NCBI GenBank assembly: GCA_003228125.1
Contig: QGNP01000001.1
Span: 1,261 to 65,260, forward strand
Direction: 5' to 3'
DNA length: 64,000 nt
Origin: Chloroflexota bacterium
Lineage (GTDB): Bacteria; Chloroflexota; Dehalococcoidia; UBA2979
Shown: positions 46,945 through 60,929 of the stretch, in pieces
How the letters are laid out: every line of letters begins with the position of its first letter
Numbering within the stretch: position 1 is the first letter of the stretch
The notes under the pieces: generated by a model
Seen by the model: the letters and a program-made list of their open reading frames with translations, nothing else
What the model was told of the DNA's origin: nothing
The model's database searches: none
Position numbers and translations under genes: made by a program

Positions 46945-49362
46945 CTATTTTGCGCTGACAACTTTTTCTTTTATTAGATTATTGACGTCTTTTTTTTCAT
47001 ATCCAAGTTCTTTTAGTATAGCTTTGGTATGTTCTCCGCATTGCATTGGTGAAGTAATTATATTCTTGGATTTAGAAAAATTTATTACTGGTGAGTGTCT
47101 TGACAAAGTTCCCCATTTTGTGGTTATTGGAGATACTAATTGATTTAATTTTGCATGTTGATTGTCTATAATAAAGTCACCAAATTTTTCCCCGTCTGCT
47201 TTTACGCATGCAATACTCTTGTCAATAAATATTTTTTCAAGCTTGTTCGCTTCGTATTTTTTAAAAAATATTTCTAGATTAATTCTAGCTTTTGCATTAT
47301 TGCCGTAATCTTTGTATGAAATTTTACTATGTGAATAAATATTTTTTATTATATCACAGCATTTTTTCCATTCATTCAAGTTTGTAATTTTTAATAAAAC
47401 CCAAGTATTGTTTTTAGTTTTATAAAGCATATTAAATGGTGATGTTCCTAATAACTCATCATCTAATTTTATAGCCTTCTGCCTGCCTTTATAATTGTAA
47501 AATTCGTGTATTTGAGCATATGAATTCGCCCCTAGCATATTTACTTCAATATTTTGTCCTTGCTTATTAACCTCCTTGTTGTAAAGACCTAAAATCATAG
47601 CAGTTGCTGCAACGACAGAAGTGTTTGGATCAGGACTTGGTTCATTTGCAGCATGGATCTGTCTAGCAATATCTGACACCTGATCAATGTTTAATTTATT
47701 ATAATCAATTTTTTTATCATGGATACTTTGACCAGCTTGTTTTAATGCTCCTCCAAGTACAGCTCCTGCAATCGGATGTGCTCCTGGCCTATTGGCACTA
47801 TCTCCTTTTGATCCATAAGCATTAACCCAAGTAAATATAATATTTTTATTAATTTTTTTTATTGATTTATAATCAAATCCTAATCGTTCAGCAACACCAG
47901 GTCTATTATTATGGATTAAAATATCAGCATTCTTGAGAAGTTGGTGCATAATTTTTTTCCCATTCTTTGTTTTTAAATCTATAGCTATGCTTTCTTTTCC
48001 AACATTGACTTTAGTGATAGGTATTTCATCTCTATACGATCGGAATGGATCTCCATTGGGAGGTTCAATTTTTATGACTCTGGCTCCTAGGTCAGCTAAC
48101 ATTGAACTTGCTAATGGAGCAGCTATAACAGATGCTATTTCTATGATTGTATAACTTTCCAAAGGAGCTTTATTGTTCGATAGAGGTGTTTTTGATCTTG
48201 ATTTTGATGCTTTAAAGTTAGCTAGAGTTGATTCATGATGCTCATTTATTTGTGGAGCAGGATTTTTTATAGATGGCTTTAAATTAGAAAAATTTGCAAA
48301 AAAACCTACTTGTTTAATTTTTCCTAAAATTGGATCAGGATAACTAATGATATTTTTATTTTTAACAATGTCCTTTTGCTTCATTGATTCTTTTGTATTT
48401 AAATAAATTTCTGCAGCAATATTGCCATTCTTTATAAATTTTTTTAACCAATAATTTGCTGTTTTCTTTCTTCCTTCTATTAAAATAATTTTTCTTAATT
48501 TTTCTTTAATAATTAAAAAATCTTTATGAAAAAATGCTTGATTACTCTGTTCAATTAATTCTTCATCTAAATTCATTTCTTTAGCGAATGCTTTAAATAA
48601 ACGATCAACTAAATTTCCTGTTTGAATCCATTGATTATCTTTAGTTAGGAATGGTTGATATGATAATGCTGGCATTTTATCAATTGTTCCAAATTCACCA
48701 TTGGGTCCATATAAATGTTTGTTTTTTTTAGACAATTGATTTAAAAATAATTCATGAAAATCGTACAACATTAATGATTTAAGTAAATTAATTTGAACCA
48801 ATTGTCCAATATGTGTCTTTTCTCTAACTATTAATGCCGAGACAATACCGCTTACTGAATTAAAAGCAGCAGCATGACTTGCTACTGGGACAATACTGTA
48901 GGAAGGACCTTTTCTTTTCGTTATAGATGATAAAGTTTGCATTCTTCCAGCTATTGCAGATACTATTGATTCATATCCGGGATAATTTGCATATTTTCCT
49001 TTTTCTCCAAAAGCAGAGATAGTGCAATAAATTATATTCGGATTTATTTTTTGTAAAGCATGAAAACCAATACCTAATTTTTGTTGTTGCTTTGGATTTC
49101 TTGCAGAAATTACAACATCTGTATTTTTCAAAAGTAAAGCAAGCTCTTGCTTACCTTTTTTAGAACTTAAATTTAATGCTATGCTTTCTTTGCCCCTCAT
49201 CCACACAGGCGACGAGCCCATTTTTCTAAATGGATCTCCTCCGGGTTTTTCTATACATAAAACTGATGCTCCAAAATCCGCTAAAATCATTGAAGCTAAG
49301 CCAGCCACTGGTCCAATTCCTAGATCCAGCACATTTATTTTTTTAAATAATTCAGTTTTCAT
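46945..49362 (-). CDS. Fused double-domain CaiB/BaiF (family III) CoA-transferase
   Basis: Two copies of LAD.GA.V..IE.P.GDPFR and GKESIA.(N/D)L; HNNRPG...RLG; GEHT..IL.ELG. Confidence 0.93.
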   Translation of the reverse strand: MKTELFKKINVLDLGIGPVAGLASMILADFGASVLCIEKPGGDPFRKMGSSPVWMRGKESIALNLSSKKGKQELALLLKNTDVVISARNPKQQQKLGIGFHALQKINPNIIYCTISAFGEKGKYANYPGYESIVSAIAGRMQTLSSITKRKGPSYSIVPVASHAAAFNSVSGIVSALIVREKTHIGQLVQINLLKSLMLYDFHELFLNQLSKKNKHLYGPNGEFGTIDKMPALSYQPFLTKDNQWIQTGNLVDRLFKAFAKEMNLDEELIEQSNQAFFHKDFLIIKEKLRKIILIEGRKKTANYWLKKFIKNGNIAAEIYLNTKESMKQKDIVKNKNIISYPDPILGKIKQVGFFANFSNLKPSIKNPAPQINEHHESTLANFKASKSRSKTPLSNNKAPLESYTIIEIASVIAAPLASSMLADLGARVIKIEPPNGDPFRSYRDEIPITKVNVGKESIAIDLKTKNGKKIMHQLLKNADILIHNNRPGVAERLGFDYKSIKKINKNIIFTWVNAYGSKGDSANRPGAHPIAGAVLGGALKQAGQSIHDKKIDYNKLNIDQVSDIARQIHAANEPSPDPNTSVVAATAMILGLYNKEVNKQGQNIEVNMLGANSYAQIHEFYNYKGRQKAIKLDDELLGTSPFNMLYKTKNNTWVLLKITNLNEWKKCCDIIKNIYSHSKISYKDYGNNAKARINLEIFFKKYEANKLEKIFIDKSIACVKADGEKFGDFIIDNQHAKLNQLVSPITTKWGTLSRHSPVINFSKSKNIITSPMQCGEHTKAILKELGYEKKDVNNLIKEKVVSAK

Positions 49363-49490
49363 GAGTCCTTAATATAAAATTATAAATCTCTATTAACATT
49401 TCCTTTGATAAAATTGTTAATATTATCATACTGTTTTGAAAAGTAATTATCAGTAATAAAAAACAAGAAACATTGAAAGGAATATTTGCT

Positions 49491-50300
49491 ATGACTCTTA
49501 AATGGGCTCACGATAAAATTATTTACACTAAAGAAGATCATGTTGCATTAATCACAAAGAATAGGCCAGATAAATTAAATGCGATGGACAAAGAAATGAT
49601 GGATGCTTATTATGAGTCTCTTGCAGATGCTGAAAGTGATGATGATATAAGGGTTATAGTGATAACTGGTAATGGAAAAGGATGGCATCCTGGTGCTGAT
49701 CCTGAAATGTTTGTGAAAGGTACGGCAGCAATGAAAAAAGGTAATCTTCCTTCTTGGAAGAGACCTCCAGCAACTACTCCTCAAATAGCTGCTTTGCGAA
49801 ATTCATCTAAAATTATTATTGGAGCAATAAATGGATATGCTTATGGAGCTGGTTTTGGTGATGCTCTATGGTGTGATATCAGAATTATTGCTGAATCAGC
49901 AAAACTAGGACCGGTATGGGCAAAGTTTGCTGCTCCTATGGAAAATGTCACAAGTGCTAATCTAACAAGTATTGTTGGTCCATCAAAAGCTTTAGAGCTT
50001 TATTTGCTACGTGAGCCAATTGAATCTGATTATGCTTTAAAGCTTGGATTAGCTAATTGGGTTGTTCCAGACAATGAATTAATGGACTTTACAATGAAAA
50101 TGGCAAAAAAAATGGCAACTAACTCACCTTATGGTACTGCTTTATCTAAATGGATGGTATATAAGTTTGCTGCACCTGATATTGGCCAGCATGTTGAATT
50201 GTTTCGACTAGCTGAAAATATTACTGGATTAACTGAAGATTCAAAAGAAGGTGGTGTAGCATTCCGTGAGCGAAGAGACCCAGATTTTAAGGGGATTTAA
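49491..50300 (+). CDS. Enoyl-CoA hydratase/isomerase (crotonase) superfamily protein
   Basis: NRPDKLNA, ITGNG...GAD, AINGYAYGAG, CDIRI, EG..AF.ERR.P.FKG; AAGGA precedes ATG 49491. Confidence 0.92.
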   Translation: MTLKWAHDKIIYTKEDHVALITKNRPDKLNAMDKEMMDAYYESLADAESDDDIRVIVITGNGKGWHPGADPEMFVKGTAAMKKGNLPSWKRPPATTPQIAALRNSSKIIIGAINGYAYGAGFGDALWCDIRIIAESAKLGPVWAKFAAPMENVTSANLTSIVGPSKALELYLLREPIESDYALKLGLANWVVPDNELMDFTMKMAKKMATNSPYGTALSKWMVYKFAAPDIGQHVELFRLAENITGLTEDSKEGGVAFRERRDPDFKGI

Positions 50301-50418
50301 ATTAAATAGGCACTATTAATAATCGGATATGTTAATGATATTGATGATATAGGGACATCCACTCAAATTAGATAAAAAATGTTTTTACAGTAATTATGAA
50401 TAAATATAGGAGTAATAA

Positions 50419-51477
50419 ATGGCAAAAAAAAATAAGCGCGGCATATCTTTAGCTTATTCTGATTTAGAAGTGAAGCCACAATTAGCAAAAGATGCAGAAG
50501 ATGCCGGCTTTGATATTATTTGGAATTCAGGTGAGAGTATTCCATTATTTGGTTCGATTTCTAAAACAACTCAAGAAATTCCATTTGGATCAGGAGTTAT
50601 TAGGGCTTTTGCTCATGACATTAGAGAATTAGCACAATCATCAGTAGATTTACAAAGATTATCAAATAATCGATTTATTCTTGGGCTTGGCGGTGGGACA
50701 AAAAGAATGAATATTAATCAACTTGGACAAGAGTTTGATCATCCTGCTACTAGATTAAGAGAAATGATACGAGGATTAAAACATGCATGGAAAACTCCTT
50801 ATAACAAGGATATGAATTTTGATGGTAAATACTATTCAATGCAAGGAAAAGGCTTAAGAGGTGTAGTATCTGATTCTGGATTAGCTGGTTTTGGTGGATT
50901 AGACACAAAAACACCTCCTAAACCAGCCGCAATTTATCTTGCAGCAGTTAATAAAGCAATGTTTCGTTTAGCTGGGGATCTTTGTGATGGATTGTGCGGA
51001 CATCCAATTGCATCTGTGAGGTTTATTAATGAAGTAGCCTGGCCTTCTATTGATGAAGGTTTGAAAAGAAGCAATAGAAGTCGAGACGATTTTGATCACA
51101 ATGCCTGGATTGTCACTGCTATTTCTAGTGATCAAAAACAAGCAGAAAAAGAAGCTAAATATCACATTGCTCGATTTATGGCTACGAGAAGCTATGGTAT
51201 TATACTTGATTCACAAGGACACACAGATCTTAAAGAAAAAATACAAAATGAATTTTTTAATAATCCTGACGATGTTGAATCTTTAATTAATGCTATTCCT
51301 GATGAAATAGCTCGAGAACATTCTATTTATGGAACCATTGATCAAGTTCGAGAACAGGCAGAAAAATATGAGGGAGTTGTTAACACATCAACTTTCTATT
51401 GTGCTTCTGCCCTAATGTCACATGATCGTATTCATGAGAACATACAATTAATGATTGAAGCATTTGGAAATAATTAG
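50419..51477 (+). CDS. LLM-class flavin/F420-dependent oxidoreductase
   Basis: AEDAGFD..W, LQRLS..RFILGLG, F.GKYY, IYLAAVN..M.RLAG..CDG..GHP. Confidence 0.9.
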   Translation: MAKKNKRGISLAYSDLEVKPQLAKDAEDAGFDIIWNSGESIPLFGSISKTTQEIPFGSGVIRAFAHDIRELAQSSVDLQRLSNNRFILGLGGGTKRMNINQLGQEFDHPATRLREMIRGLKHAWKTPYNKDMNFDGKYYSMQGKGLRGVVSDSGLAGFGGLDTKTPPKPAAIYLAAVNKAMFRLAGDLCDGLCGHPIASVRFINEVAWPSIDEGLKRSNRSRDDFDHNAWIVTAISSDQKQAEKEAKYHIARFMATRSYGIILDSQGHTDLKEKIQNEFFNNPDDVESLINAIPDEIAREHSIYGTIDQVREQAEKYEGVVNTSTFYCASALMSHDRIHENIQLMIEAFGNN

Positions 51478-51480
51478 AAA

Positions 51481-52752
51481 TTATTCAGTATATTTATTAC
51501 TAATAACTTGTTTTTTATAAAAAATATCAATTTCTTTTTTTGAAAAACCTAAATTATCTAAAATAATTTCATTGTGTTCTCCTAATAAACCAGCTGGCAA
51601 ATACCATTTTTGTGCATCAGGCTTTATGTCCCATAAAAAACCAGACATTAATCTGTTGCCTAAAAAATCATGATCTATGCTTTGCCACCAATTTCTAAAT
51701 GTCAATTGTTCATTTGTTAATAAATTTGGGGCATTAACAACTGGAGCTGCTATAACATTGCTACTTGTTAAAATATTAATAATTTCTGTACGATCTCTTT
51801 TTACAACTTCTTGCTGTATCCAAGCATGTATTTTTTCTCTATTTTTAATTCTTCCTTGGATAGTAGACCAGTCATGTTTTATGTTTGCAAATTCATCTTT
51901 TAGAAATACATGACAAAGATTTGCCCACTGTTCATCATTTTCTGCAGCTATTACAATCCATTCTTGATTATTGTTAGTAACAAAGCATCCATGAGGAACA
52001 AAGCTTTCATCTAAATTTCCTAACTGCTTTGGAAGTCTTTTGTTCCATTTCCATTCAGAAAGCATGCCAGGCAAATACCAGGCGAATGATTCTAAGTGAG
52101 AAAGGTCAATGAAAGAACCAATACCAGTCTGTTGTTTTCTGTACATTGATGAAATGGTTGCAAACATTACTTCTAAAGGAGCACTAGCATCCGTTTGAAT
52201 TGTTCCTAATATATCTTCTGTAGATTTTTGTGAATTTCCTCTAGTAATAACATGGCCTGATGAAGCTTCTACCAAAGATCCAAGAGCTGTATACCCGGAA
52301 TATGGCCCATCTACTCCCCATGCAGGCATAGAAAGCATACTTATTTTATTATTAATATTATGTATTTTTTCCCAATCAAATCCTAATTTTTCAATTACTC
52401 CTGCTGCATAACCATCAATAATAATATCAGCCCATTGTATTAACCTGGTGAATATTTCTTTACCTTCTTTTTTATTTAGATTGAGAGATAGAAATAGTTT
52501 ATTTCTGTTTCCTTGAGTTTGCGGAGCTGTTTTTTCATATGCTGGGCCAGGTCCGTCTGCTACTCTTGCATCAATAGAAATTGGCCTAGTCAGTGACCTA
52601 CGTGGATAGGATTCTACTTTTATCACTTCGGCACCCATGTCTGCCATTAATGATATGCCAAATGGAGCAGCAAAAACTTCTGCAAAATCGATGATTTTGA
52701 TATCTTGCAGTGCCAAGCAACGATTTTCGTTTGATACAACGTTATTCAGCAT
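51481..52752 (-). CDS. CaiB/BaiF family III CoA-transferase (catalytic Asp present)
   Basis: DMGAEVIKVE, NRNK, IEKLG, QTDAS, PHG.F, GEHN. Confidence 0.92.
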   Translation of the reverse strand: MLNNVVSNENRCLALQDIKIIDFAEVFAAPFGISLMADMGAEVIKVESYPRRSLTRPISIDARVADGPGPAYEKTAPQTQGNRNKLFLSLNLNKKEGKEIFTRLIQWADIIIDGYAAGVIEKLGFDWEKIHNINNKISMLSMPAWGVDGPYSGYTALGSLVEASSGHVITRGNSQKSTEDILGTIQTDASAPLEVMFATISSMYRKQQTGIGSFIDLSHLESFAWYLPGMLSEWKWNKRLPKQLGNLDESFVPHGCFVTNNNQEWIVIAAENDEQWANLCHVFLKDEFANIKHDWSTIQGRIKNREKIHAWIQQEVVKRDRTEIINILTSSNVIAAPVVNAPNLLTNEQLTFRNWWQSIDHDFLGNRLMSGFLWDIKPDAQKWYLPAGLLGEHNEIILDNLGFSKKEIDIFYKKQVISNKYTE

Positions 52753-54001
52753 AAGAATTTCCGATGACAGATTTATTATAAAGTTTTACTATTTCTTTTT
52801 TTGCATAACCTAACTCTTGCAATATTTCTTCGTTATGCTCTCCGACTTGTTCGGTTCTATATTCATAATTTGGTGAATCAGGTTGCATGTTCCATAGAAA
52901 ACCTGGCATAAGTCGTTCGCCTAAATAAGGCAAATTGATTGCTTTGAACCAATTTCTATGATGCATTTGTAAATTATTAAACATGCCAGGTGCATCTACG
53001 ATAGGACTGGCAATAGCACCGCATTGTTGAATAAGGCTAATTATTTGTTCGCTATCTTGTTTTAAGCAAATTTTTTTTATTTCATTATCAATTTTATTTC
53101 TATGTTTTAGTCTGCCTGTTATTGTGCTCCATTTATGTTCTATTGAACTCCACTCTGATTTATCTAATGCGAGGCATAATTTTTGCCACTGTTCATCATT
53201 TTCTGCAGATATAACTATCCATTTATTATCCAATGTAGGGTAGATATTATGAGGAACAATATATTTATCAGAATTACCAAGTTGTTCCGTTTCTCTATTA
53301 TTAAGTATCCATTCACCTAATGGACCAACTAAATGCCAAGCAAATGCTTCTGCTTGAGAAAGATCAATAAAAGATCCTTTGTTTGTTATCTTTCTTTTAT
53401 TTAATGATATCAAGGATGCCAAAACTACTTGAATAGGCGCTGTGGCATCTGTAATAAAATTGCCTGGTATATGAATGATATCTTTAGAATTGTTACCTCT
53501 AGTTAATGCATGGCCTACGCTTGCTTCTATTCCGGAACCTAATGCAACATACCCTGCATATGGTCCATGTACTCCCCAAGCAGGCATAGATATGACATTG
53601 ATTTTATTATTAATATTATGTATTTTTTCCCAACCAAAACCTAATTTTTCAATTACTCCTGCAGCAAATCCTTCAATTAAAATGTCAGAATTCTCTATTA
53701 ACTTTCTTAGAATGATATTACCTTCTTCATGTTTAACATTTAATGCGATGTTTCTTTTATTTCTATTTCCTTGTATTTGAGAAGTAGTTCGTTCATATGC
53801 TGGACCAGGTCCATCTGCTACTCTTGCATCTTCAATTATTGGCCTTGTTAACGACCTTCTTGGAAAAGATTCAATTTTAATTACTTCTGCACCAAGATCT
53901 CCGAGCATGGATGCTCCGAATGGACCTGCCCAAACTTCAGCAAAATCCAGCACTCTAATTCCTTTAAGAGATTGCGATTTATTAAACTGTTGTCTAACCA
54001 T
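52742..54001 (-). CDS. CaiB/BaiF family III CoA-transferase (catalytic Asp present)
   Basis: WAGP, DLGAEVIKIE, NRNKR, ITDAT, PHNIYP, GEHN. Confidence 0.93.
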   Translation of the reverse strand: MVRQQFNKSQSLKGIRVLDFAEVWAGPFGASMLGDLGAEVIKIESFPRRSLTRPIIEDARVADGPGPAYERTTSQIQGNRNKRNIALNVKHEEGNIILRKLIENSDILIEGFAAGVIEKLGFGWEKIHNINNKINVISMPAWGVHGPYAGYVALGSGIEASVGHALTRGNNSKDIIHIPGNFITDATAPIQVVLASLISLNKRKITNKGSFIDLSQAEAFAWHLVGPLGEWILNNRETEQLGNSDKYIVPHNIYPTLDNKWIVISAENDEQWQKLCLALDKSEWSSIEHKWSTITGRLKHRNKIDNEIKKICLKQDSEQIISLIQQCGAIASPIVDAPGMFNNLQMHHRNWFKAINLPYLGERLMPGFLWNMQPDSPNYEYRTEQVGEHNEEILQELGYAKKEIVKLYNKSVIGNSYAE

Positions 54002-54003
54002 TA

Positions 54004-55185
54004 TTATCTAATTGCTCCAATCTTAAATAAGGCAATTTGTTCTTCTTTTGAATATTTTAATTTTGTTAATATTTCTATAGTGCTTGAACCAAAATCTGGA
54101 GGAGGCAGTGCTTCCCAAGAGTCCTCTATTTTGAATGGTGGTCCATGAATAATTGTTTTGCCAATTTGACTGTGTTCAATTTCTACAAAAGAATTACGAG
54201 CAATTGCTTGTTCGTCATCGGTGACTTCTGACATATTCACAACTGGAGCTACCATAACTCTGTATTGTTGCATTTCTTTAAATACTTCTTTTTTTGTTCT
54301 ATTGGAAAGCCATGGATCAAGGTATTCCATAAAATCTTCGAAATGTTTTGATTTTTCTATTGGATCATTGAATCTTGAATCATTGATTAATTCTGGATGT
54401 CCTATAGCTTCGCATAATCTTGCGAATTGAGGTCCAAGCGTTGCAGCAAACATCACATATCCATCCTTGCACTTGTAGTTGCCTATAGGATAATTATCTG
54501 TATTTCTTCCCATACCACTTTTTCGTTGAGTTCCTAGTAGTACCCAATCAACGTAACCTGTATCAACATTTCCTGCTAATGCTTCTACGCTTGATAAGTC
54601 TACGTCTCTTCTAATACCATCATGTTCGTGACCCCAAACTATTGAAAGTCCAACAGCCGCTGCCGTGGCTCCAATCTGAATAGTGGCAACATGCGGACCA
54701 TATCTAAGTGGTTCAGATCCATCATGACCGTGTCTTTCCATTCTTGTGGTCCAAGCAAATATGGACATTTCATTTTCAATTCTGTTACTGTATGGTCCCT
54801 CAAGTCCATGAGGACTTATTGCAACTGTACTTGGTCCTGATTCTTTGTTAAGTAAGTTAAGAATTTTTTTTGATTCTGTGACTGGTAAATCAATAATAAC
54901 TAACTGGGCATCATTGCAAATTCTAGTAATTATTTCTTTACCAGAATTTGATAAGTGATCAATTACTATTGATTTTTTTCCAGTATCTAATGCAATATGA
55001 AATGCTCCAGTTTCTAAATTTGGAATATCTTGAAAAAATGGAGGAGTTCTTCGAATTTCACCTCCATTTAATAATTCAATTTTTATAACTTCTGCTCCAA
55101 AATCTGTGAATTGTTTAGACGCAGAAGCTGCCGCAATAGTGCTACCTATTTCAATAATTTTTATACCATTTAGAGGTTTTTGCAT
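54004..55185 (-). CDS. CaiB/BaiF family III CoA-transferase-like subunit (catalytic Asp apparently absent)
   Basis: DFGAEVIKIE, GKKS, GLEGPY, YKCKDGYV; HVATIQIG at the position where Asp is expected. Confidence 0.9.
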   Translation of the reverse strand: MQKPLNGIKIIEIGSTIAAASASKQFTDFGAEVIKIELLNGGEIRRTPPFFQDIPNLETGAFHIALDTGKKSIVIDHLSNSGKEIITRICNDAQLVIIDLPVTESKKILNLLNKESGPSTVAISPHGLEGPYSNRIENEMSIFAWTTRMERHGHDGSEPLRYGPHVATIQIGATAAAVGLSIVWGHEHDGIRRDVDLSSVEALAGNVDTGYVDWVLLGTQRKSGMGRNTDNYPIGNYKCKDGYVMFAATLGPQFARLCEAIGHPELINDSRFNDPIEKSKHFEDFMEYLDPWLSNRTKKEVFKEMQQYRVMVAPVVNMSEVTDDEQAIARNSFVEIEHSQIGKTIIHGPPFKIEDSWEALPPPDFGSSTIEILTKLKYSKEEQIALFKIGAIR

Positions 55186-55208
55186 ATTTATTCCAAAACA
55201 TCGTGAGA

Positions 55209-55223
55209 CATGTATTATACATG
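55209..55223 (-). promoter_or_regulatory. Palindrome CATGTA-3 nt-TACATG overlapping a minus-strand TATAAT; candidate promoter/operator
   Basis: Minus strand reads CATG-TATAAT-ACATG, 24 bp upstream of the CoA-transferase operon start. Confidence 0.5.
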
Positions 55224-55227
55224 AAAC

Positions 55228-55247
55228 AAAAAAAACCTTATGGTTTT
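55228..55247 (-). terminator. Weak intrinsic terminator after the MFS gene
   Basis: AAAACC-ATAA-GGTTTT running into a T tract on the minus strand, 12 bp past the stop. Confidence 0.45.
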
Positions 55248-55259
55248 AATTAATAAATA

Positions 55260-56549
55260 TTAGTCAGGCCTATTAGCTACATGATTGCCAGGTGTTATTT
55301 TTGTAGAATTAGAAGATACTTTTTTCATAAATACAATCATGATAGATGCAAAAAATGAGAGCATGCTAAAAACTATCCATATCCCTGTGTAGTTTCCTAC
55401 TGAATCGTAATATGCTGACACTAATAAAGGGCTTGTTGATGAAAGAATAATCATAAATGGCATTACTGCTCCACGTATGCTACCAATATGCTTTCTGCCA
55501 AATAATAAAGGCCAAACAATTTCTTGAAGAGGCACAACTCCAGAGATACTAATCCCTAAAGTTAAATAACCAATGATTACTAAATTATAGTTTAATGATT
55601 GAGTTCCAATTAATACTATTCCAATTCCAATGGGACAAGCAATGAATGCAAAACAAGAAAGATATCTAATATCGATTTTTTCAGCAATAATACCCCAAAT
55701 GGGTCTAGTTAATAAACCTGGAAAAGCAAATAAGGACAACATTGCAGCTGCTCTTGTCCTTTCAAAGCCAGCATCAGTTAAAAAAGGAATTGTATGTGCT
55801 CCAACTGCTGGAAAAGTTAAACTTGCCAGAGAATATGCAACTAACACTATCCAAAAATTTGAGGTTCTCATTGCTTGTTTTCTTGTGATTGATTTTTCTT
55901 CAATATTTTGAACATTATTTTTATCATCAGTAGTATTTTTTTGAATTCCATCTGGGAGCATGCCATAATCTTCCGGCTCCCTCCTCATAGTTAGGGCAGC
56001 TGGGTATAACAAACATGCTGTCAACAATGCCATTATTTGCCAGCCTGCCCGCCATCCAAATTCGTCTACAAAAGGAGTTAGTAAAGAGGGAGTCATAATT
56101 CCTGTAATTGATAATCCTACAAGGGATATCCCGATGGCTCTTCCTCGATATCTTACAAACCATTTTGCTATAGCTGCTTGTACAACTAAGAACGTAGCAA
56201 GCGCAACTCCAATAGATAGGAACACTCCTCTAATTAAGTACCATTGCCATAAATTTTCAATTTCTGCGAGCAACAATAAGCATATAATCATTATTGTTGT
56301 TCCAATAAACATCAGTTTTCTGCCTCCATGACGATCGAGATATCCACCAATAAAAACTGCTATTATCGCTGTTACGATGTACGAAACTGTTATTGAGCCT
56401 ATAAACTCTGTTCTTGTCCAATTAAATTCTTCGCTCATAGGTATAAAAAAAACACCAGTAGCATAACCTTGGACGGAACCACCGATAAACATTGTTGCCA
56501 TGGCTGCAAGTACGATGTACCAGCCAAAAAAAATATTAATTTTTTTCAT
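55260..56549 (-). CDS. MFS transporter (OFA/MCT-like)
   Basis: FFGWYIV, G..LDRHGGR, KWF.RYRGRAIG, GWR, PEDYG..PDG, LFGRKH.GSI.G. Confidence 0.92.
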   Translation of the reverse strand: MKKINIFFGWYIVLAAMATMFIGGSVQGYATGVFFIPMSEEFNWTRTEFIGSITVSYIVTAIIAVFIGGYLDRHGGRKLMFIGTTIMIICLLLLAEIENLWQWYLIRGVFLSIGVALATFLVVQAAIAKWFVRYRGRAIGISLVGLSITGIMTPSLLTPFVDEFGWRAGWQIMALLTACLLYPAALTMRREPEDYGMLPDGIQKNTTDDKNNVQNIEEKSITRKQAMRTSNFWIVLVAYSLASLTFPAVGAHTIPFLTDAGFERTRAAAMLSLFAFPGLLTRPIWGIIAEKIDIRYLSCFAFIACPIGIGIVLIGTQSLNYNLVIIGYLTLGISISGVVPLQEIVWPLLFGRKHIGSIRGAVMPFMIILSSTSPLLVSAYYDSVGNYTGIWIVFSMLSFFASIMIVFMKKVSSNSTKITPGNHVANRPD

Positions 56550-56636: not shown

Positions 56637-57245
56637 ATGAATAACAATCAATCAGATAATGTAGAAGTATTTTTAGCAAAAGCCGTTGCAGATAAATTAA
56701 TTAGTGCAGCTAATAATTTTCCAGAACCTGTAGCAGGAGTTCAGCTGTCTATTAATGGTAGAAAAGATGGAGCATTTGATCATAAATTATCATTGATTGA
56801 TAAAGGCACTGAAAATCCATTGGATATTGTTCAAGAAATTAATGAAACACTTAATTTATATATTGAGATTAAAAATGCGGAATATTTACATGGACTAAAG
56901 ATTGATTTTGATGAAACCAATAACAGTTCTAATGGTTTTATTTTTAATAATCCTAACCCAATTTGGAAAGAGCCCATTGCAATAAAATTACAAAAATTTT
57001 TTGATGAGCAAGTTAATCCATCAATTGCTTCTCATGGAGGAATGATTAACTTGATTGACATAAAAGGTTCTTCTGCATATGTAGAAATGAGCGGTGGATG
57101 TCAAGGATGCGGAATGGCAAGTGTGACTCTGAAGCAAGGAGTGGAAGTTATGGTCCAAGAAGCAATACCTGAAATTACCGAACTTATTGACAGCACAGAT
57201 CATTCTAGTGGCGAGAATCCTTATTTTGCTTCTGAAAAAAAATAA
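56637..57245 (+). CDS. nfuA: Fe-S cluster carrier NfuA
   Basis: Degenerate A-type N-domain ending F.FNNPN; NifU domain VNPSIASHGG, MSGGCQGCGMASVTLKQGVE, TDH..GENPYF. Confidence 0.92.
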   Translation: MNNNQSDNVEVFLAKAVADKLISAANNFPEPVAGVQLSINGRKDGAFDHKLSLIDKGTENPLDIVQEINETLNLYIEIKNAEYLHGLKIDFDETNNSSNGFIFNNPNPIWKEPIAIKLQKFFDEQVNPSIASHGGMINLIDIKGSSAYVEMSGGCQGCGMASVTLKQGVEVMVQEAIPEITELIDSTDHSSGENPYFASEKK

Positions 57246-57249
57246 CGAA

Positions 57250-58692
57250 ATGATTAGTTCAAAATCACCATCTCAAATTTTAAACGTAGTACTTATTTCT
57301 TTATATGATCTTGGCCATCAGCCACTTTCAATTGCTTCAGCAGCTGCCTTGCTTAAAGAGTATAATTGCAATATAGAAATTATCGAATTATCTAATTTAA
57401 AAATAGCGAAAGAATCTATTAAGAATGCAGAATTAATTTTACTTTCTGTTCCAATGCATACTGCCGCACGTATGGCAGTTAAACTGGTACCTGAATTGAG
57501 AAAAATTAATTCTGATGCACATATATCTATATTTGGACTTTATGCATTGCATTTGCAAGATGCTTTAGATGAAAGAATAATTGATTCTGCAATTTCTGGA
57601 GAGTTTGAATCATCTCTTAAAGTTTTAGTTGAAGAATTACTCACTAATCAAAAAGAAGATGATCGGTCTATTAATAGTTGGATAAGTCCAAAAATAAGTT
57701 TTGAAAGACAAATTTTCTTAACTCCTTCTAGAGAAAATTTGCCACCATTAGAACAGTATGCAAAAATGTCGATTAACAATAGTGAAAAACTTACTGGCTA
57801 TATTGAAACGAGTCATGGCTGTGCCCATTCTTGTCCTCATTGTCCAGTTACGGCAGTTTATCAAGGAAAATTTAGAATAGTAGATAAGAAATCAATATTG
57901 AAAGATGTAGATAATTTGATAAAAATAGGAGCGGAACATTTTACTTTTGGTGATCCTGATTTTTTTAATGCTCCTAAGCATTCTCTTGATATAGCATCAT
58001 CAATAAAGAAAAAATATCCTCATATAACTTTTGATGCAACTATAAAAGTTGAACATATTTTGGAACATAAAGATTTAATTAAAAAATTAAAAGACATGGG
58101 ATTTTTGTTTATTATATCTGCATTTGAATCAACAAATAATCATGTATTAAATAAGCTTGAAAAAGGACATTTATTTAATGACATGCAACTTGCTATTGAT
58201 ATTTGCAAGAGCAGTAATTTGATTATTAAGCCAACATGGATTCCATTTACGCCATGGATGCAATTTTCTGATTATCCTGTTCTGATTAATTTTATAATTA
58301 AGAATGATTTAATGAATTTAATTTCTCCAGTACAATATGGCATTAGACTTTTAATACCTAAGCTATCCACTTTAGTTTCTCAATTGAATGAAGATGGCAT
58401 CAGCATAACTTATTCTAAAGAAAAATTGACATATGAGTGGGATCATTTAGATCCTAACGTTGATATTTTATTTGAAGAAATTACAAATTTAATTAATAAA
58501 GATATAAATACGGAAGAATTAAGCACTAATTTTTTTGATGACATTTACAATTTAGTACAATCAAAGACAAACAATTCAATGCTGCCTTATCAAATTATTA
58601 ATCATGAGACAGTTGGTTCTACAGAAGATTGGTATTGTTGTGCTGAACCAACAAATAGACAAATTTTATCTGTAGATTCTATTTTAAATTAG
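57250..58692 (+). CDS. CUAEP/CCAEP-tail radical SAM protein with an N-terminal B12-binding-like domain
   Basis: YDLGHQP, VPMHTA, CxxxCxxC (GCAHSCPHCP), HFTFGDPDFFN, DATIKVEH, PFTPW, C-terminal EDWYCCAEPT; ATG 57250. Confidence 0.9.
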   Translation: MISSKSPSQILNVVLISLYDLGHQPLSIASAAALLKEYNCNIEIIELSNLKIAKESIKNAELILLSVPMHTAARMAVKLVPELRKINSDAHISIFGLYALHLQDALDERIIDSAISGEFESSLKVLVEELLTNQKEDDRSINSWISPKISFERQIFLTPSRENLPPLEQYAKMSINNSEKLTGYIETSHGCAHSCPHCPVTAVYQGKFRIVDKKSILKDVDNLIKIGAEHFTFGDPDFFNAPKHSLDIASSIKKKYPHITFDATIKVEHILEHKDLIKKLKDMGFLFIISAFESTNNHVLNKLEKGHLFNDMQLAIDICKSSNLIIKPTWIPFTPWMQFSDYPVLINFIIKNDLMNLISPVQYGIRLLIPKLSTLVSQLNEDGISITYSKEKLTYEWDHLDPNVDILFEEITNLINKDINTEELSTNFFDDIYNLVQSKTNNSMLPYQIINHETVGSTEDWYCCAEPTNRQILSVDSILN

Positions 58693-59912
58693 GATAGCGT
58701 TATTTTAATTTGAGCATTAGCTTTTTGCAATGATTTTATTATGCCTTTTTTAGATTTTCCCTCCGCAAAAATAAAACCAATATATATATTTGCTTTAGGA
58801 AGTTTTTGTATTTTTTGATTTTTGTGTACTGTGATTTGAATATCTGTTATATTTTTTATTTTTTTTGCTTCATCTATCCCAGATATTGATTCAATAGTTC
58901 CTTCGTGAATAGTTGGTATCATCATTACTGCAGTCAATGTTTGTTTATTTTTAGCACTAAATTTATTTCCTAATGCATTATTAAGTATTATTTCTTCAAG
59001 AGTAATGTTGTTTTCAAATTGTATAATCCTTGCACATAAGCCACCAATTGATCTTGCGCCGACATCTATTGGATAGATGCCTGTTTTATTAACTCTATAT
59101 TCGATATGAACAGGGCCTTCATTAATTCCAATAGCTTCGATTGTTTTCTGTGAAGTTTGAATTATTTGATTAATAAAATGACTAGTACAAAGCGGCATTG
59201 ATAAATATATTGTTTCTTCAAAATAAGGACCTGTTAATGGTTTTGGTTTTTGAAATACTGCGAGCAACTTAAACCTTTTTTGTTCAACAATTCCTTCTAC
59301 TGCATATTCTTTTCCTGGCATGTAATTTTGAATAAGAATGTTTTCTTTTTCAAAGGCGTTATTGCATTCATTCTTGAGTTCATTTTGTAATAAATTAAAT
59401 AAAAAATTTTTGTTTTTTATGAATTCAATTTTATTATTAACCCTTATAACTCCTCTACTTGATGACAAGCCAAGAGGTTTAATAACTGATGGGTATTTAA
59501 TCTTATTTTTTTGATTTTTATTATTATTTATTAGAAAAAAATTAGAATCTATTAAATTATTTCTAAATAAAAGGATATTTAATATATATTTATTTTTTGT
59601 CGCGCTAACAGATTCAAATGAACTGTGATTTATGTTTAATTTTTTTGAAGCTAAGCTTGCTAACAATACTCCTTGATCGTCTACGGCTAAAATTTTGTCA
59701 ATTTTTTTTTGTATTGAAAAATTATATATTTTTGTAGTTGATAATTTTAGTTTATGAAAATCAAGCATGAGATAACGATCTGGTAACTTTTGACTAAGTG
59801 CCTGCGTTTGATCAGTACCTATAACTATATTAATTTTTATTTTTAGAGCAGCAACAATAAAGTCATTTGCCCTATAAGTGTTACCTGGTAATAGCAGAAG
59901 TATTCTTTTCAT
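58689..59912 (-). CDS. ATP-grasp domain ligase
   Basis: TYRANDF, YP.VIKP..LSSSRGVIRV, YMPG.EYAVEG, KP.PL.GPYFEETIY, GPVHIEYR, ARSIGGLC, YIGFIFA. Confidence 0.9.
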   Translation of the reverse strand: MKRILLLLPGNTYRANDFIVAALKIKINIVIGTDQTQALSQKLPDRYLMLDFHKLKLSTTKIYNFSIQKKIDKILAVDDQGVLLASLASKKLNINHSSFESVSATKNKYILNILLFRNNLIDSNFFLINNNKNQKNKIKYPSVIKPLGLSSSRGVIRVNNKIEFIKNKNFLFNLLQNELKNECNNAFEKENILIQNYMPGKEYAVEGIVEQKRFKLLAVFQKPKPLTGPYFEETIYLSMPLCTSHFINQIIQTSQKTIEAIGINEGPVHIEYRVNKTGIYPIDVGARSIGGLCARIIQFENNITLEEIILNNALGNKFSAKNKQTLTAVMMIPTIHEGTIESISGIDEAKKIKNITDIQITVHKNQKIQKLPKANIYIGFIFAEGKSKKGIIKSLQKANAQIKITLS

Positions 59913-59996: not shown

Positions 59997-60929
59997 ATGA
60001 CAAATTTTAATTCCTTAGTTTTACCTTCAACTTTAAAACTTGAGTCAGGCAATAATGCGAATGCATTTTATGATATCCATCCTGGTCCGCTAGGAAACTA
60101 TCAAGTTATATTTACTAATGATGATGTTAATAGATGGGCAAGAATTTATGAAGATAGATTTCCATGGGCACCTAATGAAAATTCTATTTTATCAAATGTT
60201 GCTCCTGCATCTATTTTTTATTATCCTAGCATGAATGCTTTGAAGCCAATTAGATATTTTGGTGAAAAACCCAATGATCCAAATCCACAAGTATCCGGTC
60301 CTGGTGGCTTAGCAAGAATGTGGATGGAATTACATGGGCCTATTCCAATAGGAAAAAAAATCGATATTGATGCAAAAGTTACTGATAAATATCAAAGGCG
60401 GGGCATTGGGTATACTGAGTGGGGACTTGACGCTTATATTGATGGTGAATTAATACATAAGCATCGTAAATCTTGGGCGACTACAGTATCTAAAGAAGAA
60501 CTTGTAAAATGGCCAGAAAAAGCTAGTTCACCTAGGCCGCCAGAAATGAATGAAAATAGTAAAATTTTGGGGACATTAGAATATGTTACTTCTCAAGAAC
60601 ATGTTGACGACCTTGAAGGACCAGGTGAAATTAATAATCACACTGATGTACAGGCTGCGCTCGCAAATGGAGATCCTGCTCCTAGAGCTCAAGGCGCGCT
60701 TGCTTTTGGCTTGCTTTCGAGATTAATGTGTGAAGAAATTGGAGATAAATTTTATCTTTCAGGAACTTTAGACATTAAATTTGTTAATAATGTTTTTGCC
60801 GGTGACACCCAAAAAGCTAAAGGTGCATTTATAGAAAAAAATGAAGACAATATAAATATTTATAGAGTTTGGACAGAAAATCAATCAGGTGCATTGACAG
60901 CTATTGGTACTGCTACAGTTAAAGATTAG
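59997..60929 (+). CDS. Double hot-dog (MaoC-like) dehydratase family protein
   Basis: N-domain V.DKY.RRG; C-domain NNHTD..AA...G....AQG, LDIKF...VFAGD, W.ENQ.G....GTA. Confidence 0.75.
   Translation: MTNFNSLVLPSTLKLESGNNANAFYDIHPGPLGNYQVIFTNDDVNRWARIYEDRFPWAPNENSILSNVAPASIFYYPSMNALKPIRYFGEKPNDPNPQVSGPGGLARMWMELHGPIPIGKKIDIDAKVTDKYQRRGIGYTEWGLDAYIDGELIHKHRKSWATTVSKEELVKWPEKASSPRPPEMNENSKILGTLEYVTSQEHVDDLEGPGEINNHTDVQAALANGDPAPRAQGALAFGLLSRLMCEEIGDKFYLSGTLDIKFVNNVFAGDTQKAKGAFIEKNEDNINIYRVWTENQSGALTAIGTATVKD

Follow-up and report, generated by a model that had tools for sequence, protein, structure and literature searches.

A three-gene module in the 64,000-nucleotide stretch analyzed here, from a bacterium of the Chloroflexota (Dehalococcoidia, UBA2979; contig QGNP01000001.1, positions 1,261 to 65,260; hereafter the window), appears on comparative grounds to be functionally tied into one system. 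It encodes an NfuA-type iron-sulfur (Fe-S) carrier, a radical S-adenosylmethionine (SAM) protein with a CCAEP tail, and an ATP-grasp enzyme of the L-amino-acid-ligase type. The reading that we favor, with a probability of roughly 0.4, is that the ligase acts on a lysine-bearing tail at the C-terminus of the carrier and that the radical SAM protein is a client dependent on this pair. The genes and motifs concerned are the following, in window positions.

56637-57245, plus strand: nfuA, gene for the NfuA-type Fe-S carrier, 202 residues (list of open reading frames, Pfam, NCBIfam)
57099-57110, plus strand: Nfu CxxC cluster-binding motif (C155, C158), invariant in 25 aligned NfuA relatives
57228-57242, plus strand: C-terminal extension ASEKK of NfuA, following NPYF; this is the lysine tail whose presence goes with that of the ATP-grasp ligase (read from the DNA)
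57250-58692, plus strand: CCAEP-tail radical SAM protein, 480 residues (NF040546, 490.9 bits)
57820-57843, plus strand: radical SAM cluster motif CxxxCxxC (C191, C195, C198), invariant in 27 aligned relatives
58624-58653, plus strand: EDWYCCAEPT tail of the radical SAM protein, with Cys463-Cys464 at 58636-58641 (read from the DNA)
58689-59912, minus strand: L-amino-acid-ligase-type ATP-grasp enzyme, 407 residues (Pfam ATP-grasp_4 and LAL_C2), convergent with the two genes above

The layout described in the original prediction, made from the sequence of the window, was confirmed from the DNA. The nfuA stop (TAA, 57243-57245) is followed by a 4-base spacer, CGAA, and by the ATG of the radical SAM gene at 57250. 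The ATP-grasp gene is convergent and therefore does not share a transcript with the other two genes here; the two facing stops overlap (TAG at 58690-58692 and TAA on the complement of 58689-58691), and the open reading frames (ORFs) share 4 bp. A longer, TTL-start ORF for the radical SAM protein, beginning at 57187, is less likely and overlaps nfuA. The source genome measures 1.1 Mb at roughly 30% GC (guanine plus cytosine) and is 84% complete. The three-gene arrangement is not due to chance, and it recurs in other genomes.

The association was followed in three genome samples, one centered on the Dehalococcoidia (61 genomes), one from the Acidobacteriota (151) and one from the Gemmatimonadota (101). 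The radical SAM gene was present in 27, the ATP-grasp gene in 26 and a full-length NfuA-type gene in 29 of the 61 Dehalococcoidia-centered genomes. The ligase occurred in 26/27 radical-SAM-positive and 0/34 radical-SAM-negative members of this sample, so that none of its 26 ligase genomes (0/26) lacked the radical SAM gene, and the NfuA-type gene was similarly distributed (26/27 vs 3/34). Among the Acidobacteriota (24 genomes with the radical SAM gene, 29 with the ligase) the corresponding ligase counts were 23/24 and 6/127, and among the Gemmatimonadota (8 and 19 genomes, respectively) they were 8/8 and 11/93. The ATP-grasp gene thus co-occurs with the radical SAM family in other genomes, as a joint module would imply. 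The relationship is not symmetrical. Ligase genomes without the radical SAM gene made up 6/29 in the Acidobacteriota and 11/19 in the Gemmatimonadota; over the three samples the ligase was found in 57/59 radical SAM genomes, and the radical SAM gene was missing from 17/74 ligase genomes. No close radical SAM paralog was detected in the five of these 17 genomes that were tested (best match 61.7 bits). Among ten further genomes in which the radical SAM locus carries no ligase gene, the ligase was located elsewhere in six and was not found in four. The radical SAM protein nearly always needs the ligase, and not the reverse.

This one-way dependence bears directly on the sequence of events first proposed, in which the radical SAM protein acts first and the ligase attaches an amino acid to its product. 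A ligase that merely finishes the product of the radical SAM protein is unlikely, because the ligase-NfuA pair occurs without the latter. The first interpretation stands as regards the protein family, the kinship with the arsinothricin enzyme ArsL and the co-occurrence of the genes, and it finds no support in its order of radical SAM protein first and ligase second.

The genes are also physically linked. Of 27 loci examined in related genomes, 14 contain all three. A broader set of 80 loci was drawn as the best of at least 563 confirmed relatives, and leans to proteins most similar to that of the window, with five members repeating earlier loci; it spans Chloroflexota, Actinomycetota, Acidobacteriota, Gemmatimonadota, Nitrospirota, Proteobacteria and others. 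The ATP-grasp gene (at least 150 bits) is present in 53 of the 80 loci, or in 33 of the 45 with at least 4 kb on both flanks, and an Nfu gene in 36 of the 80. Relative to the radical SAM gene, the ATP-grasp gene lies downstream on the same strand in 24 of the 53 loci, upstream in 15 and in convergent orientation in 14. The NfuA and ligase genes stay together when the radical SAM gene is distant, as judged by coordinates in nine Dehalococcoidia genomes, and 4/6 genomes of other phyla with the radical SAM gene elsewhere have the same adjacency. The two genes adjoin each other in 13/16 Acidobacteriota loci and in 19/19 Gemmatimonadota genomes, with gaps of 5-90 bp, and no further partner gene recurred beside unlinked ligase-NfuA pairs in the eight loci inspected. 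These patterns argue that NfuA is tied to the ligase itself, and not only to the radical SAM protein.

It could be held that the genes share no pathway and are merely co-located in an iron or oxidative-stress neighborhood. Aconitase, G6PD, MoaA and YggX do appear among the neighbors, and the convergent ATP-grasp gene of the window lies outside the transcript of the other two. The co-occurrence nevertheless persists when the genes are unlinked (26/27 vs 0/34), three gene orders are conserved across phyla and, as described below, the tail of the carrier covaries with the ligase. We consider mere co-location highly improbable.

The clearest mark of the ligase-carrier pair is found at the C-terminus of the carrier. 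Like NfuA of E. coli, the window protein combines a cysteine-free A-type N-domain with an Nfu domain holding the CxxC motif, whose C155 and C158 are its only cysteines, and its alignment with the E. coli K-12 protein extends as far as the final residue of the latter, with 29% identity over 167 residues. It matches Pfam NifU (72.7 bits) and, below the cut-off of 26.3, Fe-S_biosyn (24.2 bits), and scores 94 bits against the NfuA equivalog TIGR03341 (cut-off 269) and 69.9 bits against NF008392 (cut-off 268); by these scores it is best called NfuA-type, a separate subfamily. Unlike the E. coli protein, which ends exactly where the extension starts and has no lysine tail, the window protein adds five residues and terminates in Lys-Lys (NPYFASEKK), and window-type NfuA is almost confined to ligase-holding genomes. 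The tail pattern NP[YF][YF]-x-x-x-K, in which the extension past NP[YF][YF] has its lysine at a distance of four to five residues, was found in 49/49 NfuA proteins from ligase-positive genomes vs 1/33 from ligase-negative genomes; this tally includes the unpublished genomes G093, G118 and G315, and without them reads 48/48 vs 1/31. By sample, the counts were 14/14 vs 0/3 in the Dehalococcoidia, where the ligase-negative proteins have His-rich tails, 19/19 vs 1/17 in the Acidobacteriota, where the one ligase-negative case has its lysine shifted by one, and 16/16 vs 0/13 readable proteins in the Gemmatimonadota. The NfuA of G070, a genome with the radical SAM gene and no ligase, is without the tail lysine.

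Some individual genomes add detail. Two ligase-negative genomes (G130 and G267) encode an NfuA extension with arginine at the lysine position. G061, of the Longimicrobiales, has three NfuA-type genes (C6:223072-223677, C5:146271-146843 and C10:433209-433790), and only the one adjoining the ATP-grasp gene matches the profile through the tail positions (199/200), the other two ending at 196.

Where this NfuA is missing, a second, unrelated iron-trafficking protein shows a comparable pattern. All ten ligase-positive, NfuA-less Acidobacteriota genomes encode a high-scoring YggX, which directly adjoins the ligase in seven, and 10/10 of these proteins end in P-x-x-[AST]-K; the YggX table from which these counts come includes one unpublished genome, G216, among other YggX types. 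The ten ligase-adjacent YggX proteins of the 80-locus set all end in K[GK]. This convergent pattern speaks for a function of the tail, and is less clean than that of NfuA. In one Acidobacteriota genome (G152:C352:3144-4461) a divergent ATP-grasp gene, scoring 146 bits against the ligase profile, adjoins a YggX without terminal lysine, a borderline case that may shed light on the role of the tail. Neither YggX nor the DUF169 protein described below was found in the source genome (84% complete), and they are not part of the system there.

The ATP-grasp enzyme carries ATP-grasp_4 (91.6 bits) and LAL_C2 (45.9 bits) domains, both above their cut-offs, and is the sole LAL_C2 protein of the source genome. 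Its nearest relative in the PDB is the L-amino acid ligase BL00235 (3vot; E 2.2e-27), and it scores 51.9 bits against the NCBIfam model of DdaF. More than 3,000 database relatives make up its subfamily, every one of them generically named, and we regard it as a distinct, unnamed subfamily of L-amino-acid-ligase-type ATP-grasp enzymes. It shares its two domains with BL00235, RizA (4wd3) and DdaF, and differs from them in its partner, which is a lysine-tailed Fe-S carrier and not an antibiotic cluster. The possibility that the enzyme is itself an Fe-S client of NfuA was rejected, because only one cysteine is invariant in its alignment. The comparative data point to a protein tail as its partner.

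A predicted complex of the ligase with NfuA, computed with an alignment as input for each protein, scored 0.57, the best of three controls scoring 0.00, and thereby weakly supports binding. The mark used for such predictions is reached by 58 of 80 solved complexes and by 2 of 110 mismatched pairs; seven of the 80 solved complexes and both passing mismatches reach it with a score of 0.60 or less. The runs for the ligase and NfuA share at least 69% of contacts, and the partner has a predicted local distance difference test (pLDDT) value of at least 77. The original prediction had cast NfuA as the Fe-S supplier of the radical SAM protein. This role has to be revised in that adjacency, the lysine tail and the weak binding prediction tie NfuA to the ligase itself, and not only to the radical SAM protein.

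An alternative use of the ligase is the synthesis of a free dipeptide or low-molecular-weight thiol for iron or Fe-S trafficking, for which the tail would be a docking or regulatory element and the radical SAM protein would make or modify one substrate. The LAL-type fold with its LAL_C2 domain is that of an enzyme suited to this, iron and Fe-S proteins recur as neighbors (NfuA, an IscA-type carrier, YggX, DUF59, aconitase), and YggX of E. coli has a lysine tail in an organism without the ligase. Such a product leaves the near-perfect tracking of tail and ligase in NfuA (49/49 vs 1/33) unexplained, and neither a transporter nor a second biosynthetic enzyme recurs with the ligase-NfuA pair, in the neighbor clusters or in the eight unlinked loci. 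We judge a free small molecule to be an unlikely end product.

The radical SAM protein had been assigned, correctly as the NCBIfam search now shows, to the CUAEP/CCAEP-tail (seleno)protein family. Its best match is NF040546 (rSAM_CUAEP), with 490.9 bits over profile positions 1-466 of 468, 9 bits short of the curated cut-off of 500. Same-genus orthologs also fall under the cut-off (475 and 465 bits), and orthologs from other genera of the same family, with the same gene order, score 508-603 bits. The genomes of the window's genus measure about 1.1-1.2 Mb at 30-35% GC, those of other genera of the family 2-4 Mb at 66-75% GC; the genus is a case of extreme streamlining and AT drift within one family, and this is probably why the window protein lies just under the cut-off. 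The family is large, with at least 563 confirmed relatives in a scan of one genome per species, and the source genome has one copy. Pfam Radical_SAM (PF04055) matches with 47.1 bits. The CxxxCxxC motif, the EDWYCCAEPT tail and its TGT TGT codons (gaa gat tgg tat TGT TGT gct gaa cca aca, 58624-58653) are as originally described. In the alignment of 27 relatives the invariant cysteines or chalcogens are limited to C191, C195, C198 and the pair in the tail, and the W, C, C/U, A, E, P and T of the tail consensus W[FY]C[CU]AEPT are invariant. The second tail chalcogen is selenocysteine (Sec), encoded by an in-frame TGA, in 16 of these 27 readable relatives and cysteine in 11; all three genomes of the window's genus encode the Cys-Cys form. 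The window protein thus resembles NF040546 members in its full-length profile match, its cluster motif and its tail, and departs from the family in its score and in having the Cys-Cys form.

The claim of a B12-binding-like N-domain is weakly supported by Pfam (PF02310, 20.7 bits; cut-off 32.1). Fold comparison upholds it: the top PDB matches of an AlphaFold2 (AF2) model (pLDDT 87; about 62, a low confidence, in the tail) are the two-domain cobalamin-type radical SAM enzymes AprD4, OxsB, TsrM, MgmA and CysS, and also MiaB. Searching PDB sequences with the profile of the radical SAM protein gave only weak matches (9ccb, MiaB, RimO, AprD4, OxsB), and no ArsL structure was among the PDB matches of the fold search with the AF2 model. 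ArsL is the closest characterized relative, as had been proposed: its family NF040542 is the second-best in NCBIfam, with 309.9 bits over profile positions 2-407 of 423, 181 bits behind NF040546 and under its own cut-off of 450. The two proteins have the two-domain architecture and a cysteine-rich C-terminal arm in common. They differ in the tail, RCCLKC with three cysteines in ArsL and CCAEPT with two in the window, and in their partners, which in the window are the ligase and NfuA; no match to ArsM or ArsQ was found among the five window genes scanned, both immediate flanking genes included. According to the ArsL literature, the enzyme splits SAM into methylthioadenosine (MTA) and a 3-amino-3-carboxypropyl group via an Fe-C intermediate, and its three C-terminal cysteines bind As(III). 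The only paper found to name the CUAEP/CCAEP family, a preprint, describes it as uncharacterized and bearing a rare Cys-Sec motif, and relates Cys-Sec motifs to heavy-metal handling.

These likenesses speak for a metalloid pathway along the lines of the original prediction. NfuA would do no more than load the radical SAM protein, whose tail would hold As(III), methylarsenite or selenium for an ArsL-like transfer of the 3-amino-3-carboxypropyl group, and the ligase would then make a dipeptide. Beyond the match to ArsL, its chemistry and arsenic-binding cysteines, and the connection of Cys-Sec motifs with heavy metals, the L-amino acid ligases as closest solved relatives of the ATP-grasp enzyme and the joint presence of radical SAM protein and ligase in 57/59 genomes fit such a scheme. 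It accords poorly with the 17/74 ligase genomes without the radical SAM gene, of which the five tested have no close paralog, and with the lysine tail and the adjacency that bind NfuA to the ligase and not to the radical SAM protein. The tail offers two chalcogen residues where ArsL uses three cysteines, no arsenic gene was recognized among the annotated recurrent neighbors (ten clusters, Pfam), and, unlike an antibiotic cluster, the three-gene system persists in a genome of 1.1 Mb and is present in 24/36 genomes of one family. On balance a metalloid product seems doubtful to us, at about the level of a one-in-five guess.

Neighboring genes were examined as ORFs picked by codon-position GC and clustered over 108 loci, ten recurrent clusters being annotated by Pfam. 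Only the ATP-grasp and Nfu genes are widespread neighbors. Less frequent are a DsrE-like protein (12 loci), YggX (10), DUF169 (9), aconitase (9) and an IscA-type carrier (8), with MoaA, DUF59, G6PD and TenA as further minor recurrent neighbors; the ten annotated clusters are iron, Fe-S, sulfur or housekeeping proteins. A small DsrE/DsrF-like protein adjoins the radical SAM gene, mostly convergently, in Actinomycetota-type loci (L049, L052, L055, L057, L058, L061-L063, L100, L107, L114, L115), a possible link to a sulfur relay. A cysteine-rich DUF169 protein (PF02596) directly adjoins the radical SAM gene in L051, L065, L095, L099, L108, L111, L117 and L125; the DUF169-bearing loci belong to Chloroflexota, Nitrospirota, Dormibacterota and Actinomycetes.

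Sulfur and cluster proteins of this kind lend some color to a further scheme, in which the radical SAM protein would use up its Fe-S cluster, or a persulfide or perselenide borne on its arm, NfuA would re-load it, and the ligase would ready the substrate. NfuA re-loads LipA and MiaB. Four kinds of Fe-S carrier recur beside the pair, the DsrE-like sulfur-relay protein adjoins the radical SAM gene in 12 loci, and MiaB and RimO are among the sequence and fold matches. The 27 aligned relatives have no conserved cysteines for an auxiliary cluster, though; the ligase-NfuA pair stands alone in 17/74 genomes; and the nearest characterized relative, ArsL, performs alkyl transfer and not sulfur insertion. 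A sacrificial cluster is accordingly given little credence here.

Two further sets of observations concern the window itself. Contigs from seawater metatranscriptomes, 100% identical to the window, cover nfuA and cross the 4 bp junction into the 5′ end of the radical SAM gene (4 runs from 4 studies); RNA libraries can hold DNA, and contigs give neither strand nor level, so they are a weak hint that nfuA and the radical SAM gene are expressed. In the four contig sets the ATP-grasp gene is left largely uncovered, as are parts of the radical SAM gene, a gap that is uninformative either way. A contig joint between 57592 and 58462, which one run showed with a side of 20 letters, was discarded as unreliable. 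Beyond the module, a 310-residue ORF (59997-60929, plus strand) has a weak MaoC-like match (18.5 bits, under the cut-off) and lies along its whole length within 100%-identical contigs in each of the four seawater RNA libraries. On the other side, 49200-56549 on the minus strand holds three tandem paralogous ORFs of about 390-420 residues and then a major facilitator superfamily (MFS) transporter (55260-56549), for which the L-lactate MFS transporter is the best NCBIfam match at 128.5 bits, ArsK scoring just 71.7 bits (cut-off 400). This order is kept within the genus and in G018 and G036, and not outside the family.

The combined observations suggest a working model in which the ligase would be the hub, paired with an Fe or Fe-S trafficking protein: NfuA here, YggX where this NfuA is missing. 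The C-terminal tail of the carrier, with its conserved lysine, would enter the ligase, and ATP would be spent in attaching a carboxylate, which is probably an amino acid, either to the side chain of that lysine or to the tail in some other way, yielding a modified carrier; as a lesser act, the ligase may at least dock the lysine tail. The radical SAM protein, its gene presumably coupled in translation to nfuA here, would depend on the ligase-carrier pair as a client, and would take a [4Fe-4S] cluster, perhaps with a soft atom or tethered group, from the carrier. By analogy with ArsL it may then cleave SAM, the flexible Cys-Cys (elsewhere Cys-Sec) arm holding the atom being alkylated. Action of an ATP-dependent ligase on the tail or a lysine of an acceptor protein has precedents in LysX/LysW, in RimK and ribosomal protein S6, and in the β-lysylation of a lysine of EF-P by EpmA-EpmB, a system that includes a radical SAM enzyme. 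The likeness is one of logic only, homology being confined to the ATP-grasp fold of LysX and RimK. The acceptor here would differ from these in being an Fe-S carrier, a role suggested by covariation and a weak complex prediction.

A number of points weigh against the ligase acting on the carrier tail. The chemistry is inferred at each step, as is the product, and the solved structures closest to the ligase are of enzymes that join free amino acids and not protein tails. The complex score of 0.57 lies in a range where, according to the tool, a prediction errs in most cases, except where binding was already a likely guess. Lysine is found in the last three residues of 3/13 YggX proteins of the same type from ligase-negative Acidobacteriota, and E. 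coli K-12 YggX ends in EDKK though E. coli has no LAL_C2-type protein; the lysine tail therefore does not require the ligase, and the E. coli tail in particular speaks against exclusivity to it. The lysine of NfuA is sometimes followed by one to eight further residues, so that the tail does not single out one reacting group. Possibly the tail is no more than the mark of an NfuA subfamily co-inherited with the ligase gene, and the counts, being drawn from genomes that share kinship, make the case look stronger than it is. Lastly, six genomes (G011, G103, G064, G066, G068 and G070) hold the radical SAM gene without the ligase.

No published description of a module of radical SAM protein, ATP-grasp enzyme and NfuA, or of its product, was found, the supplementary files on ArsL, which possibly list related subfamilies, being outside the scope of the search, and no literature pairing NfuA with an ATP-grasp enzyme was found, with or without a radical SAM protein. 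In its fullest form, which we think improbable, though worth stating, the model would describe a new post-translational system: the ligase would covalently load an amino acid or other carboxylate on the conserved C-terminal lysine of NfuA or YggX as a swinging arm, and the radical SAM protein, where present, would either build further on the group so tethered or be supplied by way of it with sulfur, selenium or a cluster. Modification of NfuA or YggX by the ligase, if it takes place, would be of a kind new to the Fe-S delivery machinery, in abundant soil and ocean bacteria without model organisms. If the model is true, a lysine-based carrier-protein logic would operate in the Fe-S biogenesis of Chloroflexota, Acidobacteriota, Gemmatimonadota, Actinomycetota and other phyla. 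The CUAEP/CCAEP family, many members of which are selenoproteins, is shown by these findings to depend on a ligase-carrier pair with a signature of its own, the lysine tail, which is directly testable by mass spectrometry, and the module has been retained in a marine genome of only 1.1 Mb and 30% GC.

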